Assembly: GCF_018350175.1 (NCBI RefSeq)
Contig: NC_058368.1
Location: forward strand, 94,428,001-94,492,000
Length of the DNA stretch: 64,000 nucleotides
Reading direction: 5' to 3'
Source of the DNA: Felis catus
Lineage: Eukaryota
How positions within the stretch are numbered: the first letter of the stretch is position 1; each line of letters begins with the position of its first letter. Both the position numbers and the translations under genes were made by a program. Under the pieces are notes generated by a model, which did not search any database, had not been told where the DNA came from, and saw only the letters and a list, made by a program, of their open reading frames with translations. Below, piece after piece: positions 14,440 to 51,247 of the stretch.

Positions 14440-17400
14440 TGCTGTAGCTAAGCCATGTCTTTATCTTACTTAACCCCTAAGCAGTATTTAACACAACTGA
14501 TCATCCCCTCCCCTGAAAACAGCACCTCCCCTTGGGTTCCAGGACTCTACTCATCTGTTTTCCACTTACTTCACTTGCCTCCCCTCTTCTGTGTTCATTG
14601 TCGAATGTTCCTCATCTTCCTAAAGTCTAAATGTTGGAATGCAACATCCCCTGTTCATGCATGCATCTTTCCTAAATTATTTCACCCAGTTCTATGGCTA
14701 AAGCCATAAAAATATCCCAACTATTGACAGTAACTCCCAGGTTTATATGTATAGTCCCAATGTCTCCCCTGAATTCCAGAAAACCTACTCAGTGTCTCCT
14801 TTTGAGTACCTACTAGGTGTATCAAAATCGGTGATCTAACACAGAACTCCTAATTTCCCTCCATGTGCCTAATCCTTGCCAAGAATTCCAGATGTCAGTA
14901 AATGGCACTTCCATGTACCCTGTTTGGCAGGTCAAAGCTTTGGAGTCAGTCTTGGCTCTTTTCTTTGCTTTTCTTTTCTCTTTTCTTTTCTTTTCCCTTC
15001 TTCTCTTCTATCCTCTTTATTATTTTTTAATTATTAATTAATTAATTAATTAACTTTTATTCTTATTTAGAGAGAGAGAGTGAGCAAGAATGGGGTAGAG
15101 GGGCAGAGGGAAAGAAAGAATCTTAAAAAAAATTTTTTTGTAATGTTTATTTCTGAGAGAGAGAGAGACAGAGCGTGAGTGGGTTAGGGGCAGAGAGAGA
15201 GAGGGACACACAGAATCTGAAGCAGGCTCTAGGCTCTGAGTTGTCAGCACAGAGCCTGATGCGAGGCTTGAACTCATAAGCCATGAGATCACGACCTGAG
15301 CAAAAGTCAGACGCTCAACCGAGCCACCCAGGTGCCCCCAGCCAACGTTTTTTATATACAATTTTACTGGCTGAAAGGAAATGTCATTCTGTGCTCAGAT
15401 CCACCCAAGTGACAAGGAGCCATACTATAAAATTAGCACCCTGGCTTTCCACCCCTGACTGGGGGCTTGAACCCATGAACTGTGAGATCATGACCAGAGC
15501 CCTTAACTGATTGAGGCACCAAAACACCCTGAGAAAAAGAGACAGAGAGAGAATCTTAAGCACACTTCATGCTCAGTGCAGAGCCTGGTGCAGGGCTCAA
15601 TCCCATGACATGGGATCATGACCTGAGCCAAAATCAAGAGTCAGATGCTCAACTGACTGAGCCACCCAGGCGCCCCGTGGCTCTTCCCTTTCACTCAAAT
15701 GCCATATGTCTTGTATTAGCAGATCCTCTTACCTCCACTTTCTTTTTTTTTTTTAATATATAAATTTATTGTCAAATTGGTTTCCATACAACACCCAGTG
15801 ATCATCCCAAAAGATGCCCTCTTCAATACCCATCACCCACCCTCCCCTCCCTCCCACCCCCCATCAGCCCTCAGTTTGTTCTCAGTTTTTAACAGTCTCT
15901 TATGCTTTGGCTCTCTCCCATTCTAACCTCTCTCTTTTTTTTTTTTCCCCCTTCCCCTCCCCCATGGGTTCCTGTTAAGTTTCTCAGGATCCACATAAGA
16001 GTGAAAACATATGGTATCTGTCTTTCTCTGTAAGGCTTATTTCACTCAGTATAACACTCTCCAGTTCCGTCCACGTTGCTACAAAGGGCCGTATTTCATT
16101 CTTTCTCATTGCCACATAGTACTCCATTGTGTATATAAACCACAATTTCTTTATCCATTCATCAGTTGATGGACATTTAGGCTCTTTCCATAATTTGGCT
16201 ATTGCTGAGAGTGCTGCTATAAACATTGGGGTACAAGTGCCCCTATGCATCAATACTCCTGTATCCCTTGGGTACATTCCTAGCAGTGCTACTGCTGGGC
16301 CATAGGGTAGGTCTATTTTTAATTTTTTGAGGAACCTCGACACTGTTTTCCAGAGTGGCTGCACCAGTTTGCATTCCCACCAACAGTGCAAGAGGGTTCC
16401 CGTTTCTCCACATCCTCGCCAGCATCTATAGTCTCCTGATTTGTTCATTTTGGCCACTCTGACTGGCGTGAGGTGATATCTGAGTGTGGTTTTGATTTTA
16501 TTTCCCTGATGAGGAGGGACGTTGAGCATCTTTTCATGTGCCTGTTGGCCATCCGGATGTCTTCTTTAGAGAAGCGTCTATTCATGTTTTCTGCCCATTT
16601 CTTCACTGGGTTATTTGTTTTTTGGGTGTGGAGTTTGGTGAGCTCTTTATAGATTTTGGATACTAGCCCTTTGTCCGATATGTCATTTGCAAATATCTTT
16701 TCCCATTCCGTTGGTTGCCTTTTAGTTTTGTTGATTGTTTCCTTTGCTGTGCAGAAGCTTTTTATCTTCATGAGGTCCCAATAGTTCATTTTTGCTTTTA
16801 ATTCCCTTGCCTTTGGGGATATGCCAAGTAAGAAATTGCTACGGCTGAGGACAGAGAGGTCTTTTCCTGTTTTCTCCTCTAGGGTTTTGATGGTTTCCTG
16901 TCTCACATTCAGGTCCTTTATCCATTTTGAGTTTATTTTTGTGAATGGTGTGAGAAAGTGGTCTAATTTCAATCTTCTGCATGTTGCTGACCAGTTCTCC
17001 CAGCACCATTTGTTAAAGAGACTGTCTTTTTTCCATTGGATATTCTTTCCTGCTTTGTCAAAGATTAGTTGGCCATACTGTTGTGGGTCTAGTTCTGGGG
17101 TTTCTATTCTATCCCATTGGTCTATGTGTCTGTTTTTGTGCCAATACCATGCTGTCTTGATGATTACAGCTTTGTAGTAGAGGCTAAAGTCTGGGGTTGT
17201 GATGCCTCCTGCTTTGGTCTTCTTCTTCAAAATTACTTTGGCTATTTAGGGCCTTTTGTGGTTCCATATGAATTTTAGGATTGCTTATTCTAGCTTTGAG
17301 AAGAATGCTGGTGCAATTTTGATTGGGATTGCATTGAATGTGTAGATAGCTTTGAGTAGTATTGGCATTTTGACAATATTTGTTCTTCCAACCCATGAGC

Positions 17401-46942: not shown

Positions 46943-49099
46943 TTTTAGCTGGTCTGAGTAGTGAGTGGATTTTCTGAGCATCTCCTTAAGTTTTTTGTTT
47001 GTTTTTAGGGGCACATGGGTGGTTCGATCTGTTAAGCATGGGTCTCTTGATCTCAGCTCAGGTCCTGATCTCAGGGTCATGAATTCAAGCCCTGCCTTGG
47101 GGCTTGGTGCTGGTCGTGAAGCCTACTTGAAAAAAAAATTTTTTTTTTTGTTAAAATTTTTAGTGAATGTATTCCTGGAAAATGGTCTATTTCCCAGAAC
47201 TATTCTTTCCCTGAAGTGTCAGAAATTTCATGTAATAATATTCTCCAGTTTTTAAGTAATTGACATAAGCATGACTCAGCTGGTGTGTTATTTAGCAACT
47301 TTTGAGTGACATGAAAGATTTCTCAGAATCATTTGGTGCCATTTTATTACTTTGAGTCTTTGTGTGGTGGCCAATTTCTATTTGTTTAATGACAAACTGA
47401 GGGGAGGAACACCTCTAATACGAATTTGAAGTAACTCAGTTACTGACTCCTTTTATCTCTTTAACATTTCCTTGGGAGTCTGGAATCCTTCAAGAAATTG
47501 TCCTGTGGGTGGTAAGGACAATTATTAGCTCTACATCTGGGACACCCCTCTAGCTCAGTAGCACACAGTTCCAACAGAAGGAGCTGTTTCTCCCTTAGCT
47601 CTACCCCAGGACCTTCTGGAAGTGATGTAGGTGGCCACCATTATTTTCAAATATGATCGTTTCATTGCTGAAGAAAGCAGGTCAAACCTGTAATCAGGAC
47701 ACGGGTCTGTCTACAGATTACAGCACAACTATCTGTGTGAGCTTGGGTCTAAGTTTTCTTCTTCCGCCCTGTCCCGTTCCGAAAGTTTATTTTTAACTTG
47801 ATTAATTTCATTGGGAAGGTCAATTTGCCAGGGGAATCACCTTGGTTTACCCCACCTCTGAACTCAGGTGGAAGGGTTTCCTCCTTGGATGGGACCTAGC
47901 AGGAGCGTGAAGACTGTTTTCTGGCAGAGATGGAAAATTTCTCTGAGTTCTGAAAGTCTGAAGATGGGATGCGCTCAAGTAAATCTTCAGCCAGCAAGAG
48001 AATTTTTAACCACCCTCTCGCCTCCCCCAGTGCCCCCGGAGTACGCGCAACCCCATCCGCAACGCACGCGAGCGCGTGCTTGCAGACTCGGAGCTCCGCT
48101 CCCAGGCCGGGGAACTCTCCCTGCAGCACGGGCTAAATAGCAAACAGATGCCCGGCAAGCCAAAGATCTCACCGACTGGGGCACCGCCTGGGACACGGGT
48201 CCCGCCCCGGCAGTTTCCGAGTGGAAAGGCTGGCCGCACTACTATGGCTTGAAACGGACCGGTTTGGAAATCAGAACGTCCCCTTTCCCAGGGACTACCC
48301 CTCTCCACCCCGCAGCCCCGGAGGAACTCCCCTTGCCTTTCGGTCGGCCCCTCCTCCAGCCCCACCTCGCCAGCTCGGAAAGGCTCGGGGACTCCTGGCC
48401 TTGTCTCCATCTTCGCACTCTCTGCCTTGGCTGCGTGAGTCCTGAGCTTATTCAGGAGGTGAATGTAGGCCCAACGGTTTGGCTCCGGGAGTTAGTTCTG
48501 ATGGCGTGGATGTCCTTCTGAGGGTCATTTCAGAGTGCGTCTCCAAAAGTCCCGATCCTTAAGCCCCTCACCCAACCCCTAGCCCTGGCTTCCCCAGCTG
48601 ATGGCCAGCAGGTGTGCTGTCCGCAGACCGTCCGGCAGTCAAGGAGCAGCGTGGGCCCTGCACTTGTCTCTTTTCCGACAACACCTGAGACCGCACTGGG
48701 GCGCATCGAACAAATCCCATGAATCCAAACATCCTTGTCGGAAGTGTCTAAGTTCGAGTGTGGTCCGACCGTCCCCTTAGCGCGTCGTCTCTGGAAGCCT
48801 CTTGTGCGAGGTCTTTTCCTTTGGACCCAAAGAGGCGCGCGCTGCGGTGCGCGGGATCCGCCTCTTCCCCAGGCTCCGGCGGGGCGGGGGTGGGTGGGCA
48901 GGGACCTGGATCTGATTAGCTGGGAGGGGGAAGCCGTGGTCCCAACCGTTCGCTCCTGTCTCCCCAGCTCCTCACGGAGGAGGAGGCGGGACGGTACAGA
49001 GAAGAAGAGCGAAGGGGGTCCCATCACTGAGCACCAGGGCCACCATTTGAGCCGCCGAGGTCTCCCGGCTGTCGCCCGGCCCTCGCCCCGGCCCCAGCC

Positions 49100-49797
49100 A
49101 TGGGGCCCCCTTCCAGCTCTGGCTTCTACGTGAGCCGCGCGGTAGCCCTGCTGCTGGCCGCGCTGGCCGCCGCGCTCCTGCTGGCGCTGGCGGTGCTCGC
49201 CGCCCTGTACGGCCGCTGCGCGCGCGTCCAGCCGTCCGACCTCCATCACAGCGGGGTCCCGGACGCCGCGTCCTCGCCGCGCGGCACGCAGGAGGAGCCG
49301 CTGCCCACCTGGCCGCCCCGCCCCACTCGTGAACCGGCGGGTACGGCCACCCCGGGCCACTGGCGACCCCCGGGCCCCTGGGACCAGCTGCGCCTGCCGC
49401 CCTGGCTCGTGCCTCTGCACTATGAGCTGGAGCTGTGGCCCCGGCTGCGTCCGAACGAGTTCCAGTCTCCGACATTGAGCTTCACCGGCCGCGTGAACAT
49501 CACCGTGCGCTGCAACGCGGCCACCGCGCGGCTGCTGCTGCACAGCCTCTTCCTGGACTGCGAGAGCGCCGAGGTGCGGGGTCCTCTGTCCTCTGGCCCC
49601 CGAGACGGCGCTCTGGGTCGCGTGCCCGTGGACGACGTGTGGTTCGCTTTCGACATGCAGTATATGGTGCTGGAGCTCGGCGCGACCCTGCAGCCCGGGA
49701 GCCGGTATGAGCTGCAGCTCAGTTTCTCGGGCCTGGTGTACCGGGACCTCAGGGAGGGGCTCTTCTTCAGCATCTACACGGACCAGGGCGAGCGCAG
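49100..49797 (+). CDS. LVRN: Exon 1 coding part (codons 1-232 plus 2 nt) of laeverin / aminopeptidase Q / Taqpep, a type II membrane M1 aminopeptidase
   Basis: Translation MGPPSSSGFYVSRAVALLLAALAAALLLALAVLAALYG...WDQLRLPPWLVPLHYELELWP...FTGRVNITV...YTDQGERR matches the laeverin N-terminus as I recall it: signal anchor at ~aa 14-36, Pro/Thr-rich stalk, and the M1 RLP..P.HY.L motif. Strong Kozak context GCCATGG. Canonical donor AG|GTAAG at 49797/49798 (phase 2); the ORF-track stop at 49799-49801 is intronic. Confidence 0.97.
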
Positions 49798-50164
49798 GTA
49801 AGGACAGGCCGGCCCCCGTCCCCCGCTCTAGCTGGGAGTCCCGCTGCTACCTGCGTCCCGGTGAGCGTCTGCTGCGCTTCCCCGCAAAGCCCCCACCCCT
49901 CGCGACGCTTGCTTGCAGAGCCAAAAGGCGAGCGCCTCCACCCCCCGCTGCCCTGCAGAGACCCTGCTTGTCTTAAAGCCTCTCGGACCGTGGTCCTGCC
50001 TCTGGCCAGTTTTCAGCCCCATCCCTGCCCGTCCAGTTTGTTTCTGTCCTTGCTTTTCTAAGGTCGCTACTACCCTAGAGGTCGATCATAGGCTTCAGAA
50101 AACCCCGCTTCTGCTCTAATCCAGGAGGGCTTGCTTCGCCACAGGGGGCAAATAAATCCCTTCC

Positions 50165-50318
50165 TATTCAGTTTGGTCCGCGGGCCGGCGGTCGCTGTAA
50201 TATCTGGGAGCTCGTCCGAAATGCAGATCTCCCCCCGCCCCACCTCGATCAAAGGGATCAGACTGCGTTTTAACGAGACCACCGGGGGATTTCTGGGGGG
50301 TAGAGGTGGAGAAGCCTG
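50165..50318. mobile_element. MER5A1-like hAT-Charlie element inside the CpG island
   Basis: TGGTCC...CTGGGAGCTCGTCCGAAATGCAGAT...CCCCACC...ATCAGACTGCGTTTTAACGAGA. Confidence 0.6.
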
Positions 50319-51247
50319 GGGCTGCCGCACCCACGCGCTCGCCGAAGTTCCCTCCCCCAGCGCCCCTCCGCGCTCAGCTCCCTGCTCTGCCTTTCCCCTG
50401 GGCTCTCCGTAGATGCTACTCTTGCAACAGGCAGACCCACGTCGGTGCTCTTCTCATTTTTCATTTCTTTTGCTGAGGGTTCTCCCAAATTTAAGAATCC
50501 CCTTTAATTCATCCCCTCCCACCCCCTGCCTGGGGAAGGCGTCTTGTTTTGGGGATGAGCAGCAGCACCCCCACCCCTCCCAAGCTTTTTGAACGGCTCT
50601 CGGGACGCTGCTTCCGCTGGGGGTGGGGGTGGGGGGAGTACTAACAAGAGACCTCCCCTCTGAGTTTGCAAGCTCACGCAGCTTACATGTGTTCTCTTTA
50701 CACTCATTTGGGATAATGTCTTCCACACGGAATGTTTCCAGCCCAAGAATTGCCTCTTTCCACGCCCTGAGATCACGCTACTGAACTCAGGAGAGCGCTG
50801 GGGGAAATCGTTTCTGCGGAAGACACCAGAAAGGTCTTTCTCCAGGCTGGCGAGCTTCTTCACTCACGCACTGGTGGGGCATTTGCGGTTTACACAACTG
50901 CATGTACTTTGCCTTTTATTATTAGAGAAAATGTTCTCAGATGTTCTCTGGGGGAGAGGAACCTAGTAAATTACCCCCTAAATCATCTCCTGCCCTGTTT
51001 TCAAAACGCCAGGGGTTTTAAAATAAGTTTAATAAGCTGCCTTAGCGGATGTGTAATCTGTAACTTTTGTTTTTAAGGACTGTATGCTTGGTTTGTTTGT
51101 TTGTTTGTTTTCTTTCAAAAATGCACCAGTGCTTGAAAAAGAGTTTTGGAAACTTTCTCATTGGGATGATGTGTCACGGGACTTAAGGACACCAGAAACC
51201 TTTTAAAGTGACTGTATGTGTATTTCAGAATGCAAGATTTTTAGAGG

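Follow-up and report, generated by a model that had tools for sequence, protein, structure and literature searches.

The T139N variant of cat LVRN/Taqpep is said to go with a swirled pattern that was incompletely penetrant in the work of Kaelin et al. 2012, where two variants at codon 139 are reportedly mentioned. In the available text of Ottoni et al. (10.1101/080028), T139N is a C-A transversion linked, at second hand, to an atypical swirl of the coat; of 63 cats screened, 3 carried the mutant, which was not detected in the other 60. Section 33 of that text writes "Tabby-T139A" once, with T139N elsewhere, which is probably a slip of labeling and, since the assay is apparently the same as that for T139N, does not point to a separate allele. 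Counts at c.416 in the available part of PMC12980914 are 34 C to 0 A for the CRFK line and 10 C to 12 A for PG-4, which is therefore heterozygous. According to these two sources, as far as they are available, c.416C>A is polymorphic and segregates in cats.

The literature disagrees on the status of this allele. The available text of PMC8252059 names S59X, D228N, and W841X alone as causal variants and omits T139N, whereas PMC12980914 lists c.416C>A as a Tabby allele, under blotched tabby, and PMC11626677 gives four recessive LVRN alleles, tb1-3 and tb^as (both likewise as available in part), the "as" of the last presumably standing for atypical swirl. Four LVRN mutations are also spoken of in the available text of PMC7348984. 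The supplements of PMC8252059 (4 files) and those available for PMC8423757 (6 files) contain no T139 data, and the available portions of PMC12941195, PMC8488692, PMC5019183, PMC11216403, and PMC7348984 contain no discussion of T139N.

Against this background, we analyzed a stretch of Felis catus DNA of 64,000 nucleotides (contig NC_058368.1 of assembly GCF_018350175.1, positions 94,428,001 to 94,492,000, forward strand), the whole of which is termed the window here. An earlier note, made from the letters of the window, had claimed that this haplotype carries Asn139 in LVRN/Taqpep and had equated the change with T139N. The allele is almost certainly the already catalogued domestic-cat c.416C>A, listed in print as such in the available text of 10.1101/080028 and PMC12980914, and does not represent new biology. 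What the change does to the protein is a separate matter, on which the evidence is more evenly divided.

Exon 1 of LVRN/Taqpep in the window

Counted from the ATG at 49100, codon 139 specifies Asn, with the A of c.416 at position 49515, and codons 59 and 228 specify Ser and Asp, all just as the earlier note had read them (Table 1). The haplotype therefore lacks both S59X and D228N, as was also claimed. The reading frame runs for 233 codons up to its first stop, and the window contains no ambiguity letters. The best matches of exon 1 are mammalian aminopeptidase Q/laeverin proteins, and its assignment to cat LVRN/Taqpep is borne out by the identity of all 233 residues with the RefSeq Felis catus protein XP_044913698.1 (P0184) and with the UniRef cat isoform P0185. 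A tblastn search with the full leopard-cat protein as the query recovered no other LVRN exon from the window.

Table 1. Features of the LVRN/Taqpep locus in the window and the evidence for each
Feature	Positions	Strand	Evidence
LVRN/Taqpep (aminopeptidase Q) exon 1, coding part, c.1-698	49100..49797	+	0/233 differences from XP_044913698.1 (P0184)
Predicted N-terminal membrane-anchor helix, residues 13-39	49136..49216	+	Cheetah model helix H13-39; hydrophobic run
Codon 59, TCG, Ser, wild type, no S59X (c.176C>A)	49274..49276	+	Sequence; variant named in the available text of PMC8252059
N133-I-T135 N-glycosylation sequon, intact, predicted mid-strand	49496..49504	+	N in 57/62, T in 59/62; model
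Cys138, invariant, last residue of the predicted strand ahead of 139	49511..49513	+	62/62; model
Codon 139, AAC, Asn, c.415-417, derived allele of T139N/c.416C>A	49514..49516	+	Sequence, felid comparison, variant in print
Codon 228, GAC, Asp, wild type, no D228N (c.682G>A)	49781..49783	+	Sequence; Asp in 62/62 aligned orthologues
Intron 1 splice donor GTAAGG, intact, directly after exon 1	49798..49803	+	Sequence
CpG island, promoter and exon 1	48500..50500 (edges approximate)		GC 0.65; CpG observed/expected 0.80

The codon numbering is secure because the 992-residue proteins of snow leopard, leopard cat, and cheetah align without a gap over residues 1-232, with S59, T139, and D228 in all of them, and because the distances in the window from c.176 to c.416 (240 bp) and from c.416 to c.682 (266 bp) equal those in Table 1 of PMC12980914 (available in part); the use of Ser59 and Asp228 as anchors for the numbering was thus sound. 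The same published table places c.2522, the site of W841, 59.2-59.3 kb beyond c.416, that is, about 45 kb past the end of the window, so that the coat phenotype is not callable from the window, as the earlier note had stated.

The RefSeq protein carries the Pfam domains Peptidase_M1_N, Peptidase_M1, and ERAP1_C. Its catalytic motifs, SAMEN at residue 380 (GAMEN type) and HEIGH...E at residues 416-439 (HEXXH(X)18E type), lie far in sequence from residue 139 and are encoded outside the window. A predicted N-terminal anchor helix, a Peptidase_M1_N domain, and orthology to aminopeptidase Q were all found, as expected of laeverin, an M1 aminopeptidase. The N-terminal anchor helix of M1 aminopeptidases has a membrane role.

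Inspection of the sequence also ruled out a duplicate of the 3' half of exon 1 elsewhere in the window. On the minus strand at 15987-17245 are two overlapping open stretches whose translations we take to resemble the C-terminal part of LINE-1 ORF2. Exon 1 has T82 and H87 at residues 82 and 87; T82K and H87P are presumably changes of the black-footed cat.

Ancestral state of residue 139

Exon 1 differs at 4-6 residues from the records of snow leopard, cheetah, bobcat, and leopard cat (two records), compared with 0 of 233 from the cat proteins; on this set of felid records, its source is therefore a domestic cat or a near relative within Felis. Thr occupies residue 139 in all five identified non-Felis felid records (P0131, P0134, P0142, P0183, and P0197), as well as in the felid-type record P0144, both hyenas, and human; the meerkat has Ala. 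The human motif VRC-T-VAT, given in the earlier note, is present in P0034. Since Thr139 occurs in the other felids and the hyenas, Asn139 is derived in cats, and the A of c.416 is the derived allele, in agreement with the original claim.

Two other sites distinguish cats from these relatives. Pro67 (49298-49300) and Leu172 (49613-49615) are common to the four cat-type records, V172L being present in all four of the cat-type full exon 1 sequences compared; all six non-Felis felid-type records have Gln67 and Val172. On this sequence comparison, both are likely changes of the Felis lineage. A record of 233 amino acids found on three contigs (P0189) has the same Pro67/Leu172 background and equals exon 1 of the window save for Ala at residue 139.

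The protein-level state extends to the reference. Both cat proteins, P0184 (992 amino acids) and P0185, carry Asn139; in P0184 it stands together with Trp841, so that, on the RefSeq haplotype at least, T139N and W841X are not linked in cis. In the literature searched, which was without Kaelin et al. 2012 and OMIA, we found no report that the RefSeq cat protein carries Asn139. Anyone who takes XP_044913698.1 as the wild type for cloning, for structural work, or for naming variants starts from the variant residue, and analyses that treat it in this way would read codon 139 backwards.

Variability and predicted structural setting of residue 139

To characterize the column at residue 139, records aligned to the invariant Cys138 were counted; 15 of 197 were dropped for want of an aligned Cys138, namely, 9 unrelated peptides of 51-54 amino acids and 6 fragments or isoforms. 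The remaining 182 records, some of them isoforms or repeated entries for a single species, show 11 residue types: Thr (98), Ala (39), Arg (14), Val (12), Leu (5), Ile (4), Asn (4), Met (3), and one each of Lys, Ser, and His. Most of these residues (Thr, Val, Ile, Leu, Met, Arg, and Lys) suit the end of a strand, and Gly, Pro, and Asp occur in none of the 182. Asn was absent from this column among the 120 matches listed in the first protein search, and three of the four records that have it are cat type. The fourth (P0161; 233 amino acids) is laeverin exon 1 from a mammal other than the cat, about 80% identical to its best identified matches.

Unrelated peptides also affect one of the sequence clusters. 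Nine of the 15 members listed for P0145 are peptides of 51-54 amino acids unrelated to laeverin, and its cluster size of 22 should for this reason not be taken as a count of laeverin sequences.

Residue 139 belongs to the Peptidase_M1_N domain (residues 104-308), the N-terminal beta domain. Its setting was taken from the cheetah protein, which has Thr139, as modeled by AlphaFold2 with a 62-sequence alignment (mean pLDDT of 77 overall and 89 over residues 131-140). The model predicts a strand at 125-138, a connector loop at 139-141, and a second strand at 142-148, which would make residue 139 the first of the three loop residues. In the 62-sequence alignment, the column at 139 has an entropy of 2.13 bits, and 84% of the positions from 104 to 308 are more conserved; D228 and W841 are invariant (0 bits; 62/62), and Thr142 is near-invariant. 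The profile penalty for T139N is mild at -0.92 bits, versus -3.01 for D228N and -1.28 for V172L.

Possible effects of Asn139

We lean, if only slightly, toward reading T139N as a mild hypomorph with partial loss of function. As a poor strand former, Asn139 may slightly loosen the end of strand 125-138, and a looser strand end could leave somewhat less folded Taqpep at the surface of dermal cells. A proposed role of Taqpep is to restrict how far the Wnt/Dkk4 signals that lay down the stripe pre-pattern can reach (PMC8423757 and 10.64898/2026.06.30.735461, as far as available). With less enzyme, stripes would move partway toward whorls, chiefly where the other copy is weak too, and the resulting pattern would lie between stripes and blotches. 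If T139N is a true hypomorph, it offers a graded handle on how Taqpep controls the spacing of stripes.

A possible reading, though one that we would not expect to prevail, is that T139N is near neutral for the protein and tags a haplotype that owes its effect to a different change, either cis-regulatory or in another exon, or else that the association is weak and other loci are involved. The variable column, with its 11 residue types, the mild penalty, which is below that of a change shared by all cat-type records, and the presence of Asn in an unrelated mammal and of Gln in aminopeptidase N are the grounds on which T139N may be such a near-neutral tag. The Ala139 record on an otherwise identical exon 1 points the same way, as does the disputed status of the allele, which PMC8252059 omits and PMC12980914 and PMC11626677 include (texts available in part). 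Set against these points, Asn is rare (without the three cat-type Asn records, it occurs in 1 of 179), residue 139 adjoins the invariant Cys138 and is near Thr142, and the later tables in the available text of PMC12980914 and PMC11626677 retain the allele as causal. A narrower form of this idea, which we hold to be rather unlikely, is that Thr, Asn, and Ala all occur, and are tolerated, at residue 139 in cat LVRN, with T139N tagging an unfound change that causes the swirl, possibly a regulatory one within the promoter CpG island or close to it. If T139N is only a marker, then the variant that causes the swirl is still to be found.

An effect of Asn139 through glycosylation, by disturbance of the N133 sequon, or through a cryptic splice site appears very improbable. 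The conserved N133-I-T lies six residues upstream, and the earlier note had hinted that this proximity matters; the hint was not supported here, as N133 is predicted to sit in the middle of the strand and residue 139 past its end, half a strand away, a distance of perhaps 20 Å if the strand is extended. Exon 1 contains a single N-X-S/T sequon, N133-I-T. N139-A-A does not qualify as another, as the earlier note had correctly observed; Thr139 forms part of none either, residue 137 being Arg. With regard to splicing, the A in TGC-AAC-GCG creates no GT or AG, and the donor of intron 1 is intact.

That the source species is fixed for Asn139 or has it as its ancestral residue, which the earlier note had named as the outcome that would overturn it, or that Asn139 is an assembly error, is scarcely credible and already largely refuted: although Asn139 is found in all three of the identified or window-identical cat records listed, and a cat-type protein with Thr139 is absent from the listed members of two clusters (15 of 22 in one and 15 of 80 in the other), Thr is present in the five identified non-Felis felids and, in the available text of 10.1101/080028 and PMC12980914, is the majority state in cats, with 60 of 63 screened animals lacking a detected mutant allele, CRFK showing C alone, and PG-4 being heterozygous. 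An assembly error is unlikely in its own right, as the RefSeq cat protein shares this residue and the words sampled from exon 1 recur across sequencing runs. Of the 24 runs listed, 14 contain all 75 of these words, and 8 of the 14, from five studies, bear no flag as a possible source; runs with the complete set probably carry the A itself.

The mild-hypomorph reading and its alternatives concern an allele that is, at present, the least supported of the Tabby series, given the variability of the residue that it changes and given that the literature searched yielded no functional assay of T139N.

Comparison with known systems

Among solved structures, the nearest to LVRN is aminopeptidase N, which gives both the top sequence match (E value of 4e-190) and the top fold match (5lg6; E value of 1.4e-63, 36% identity); no laeverin structure is included in the 57 PDB matches. 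At the position aligned with residue 139 of cat LVRN, the porcine aminopeptidase N has Gln.

The RefSeq protein XP_044913698.1 is identical to the window over exon 1, Asn139 included, but it is a full-length sequence (992 amino acids) that includes Trp841, whereas the window contributes exon 1 alone. The window agrees with the cat Tabby allele c.416C>A (p.T139N) in the gene and codon affected, in the base exchanged, and in the distances to c.176 and c.682, and we found no difference between the two. The blotched alleles S59X, D228N, and W841X belong to the same gene and locus as T139N; they differ from it in that they truncate the protein or strike invariant residues (D228 and W841, each 62/62), whereas T139N strikes a variable one.
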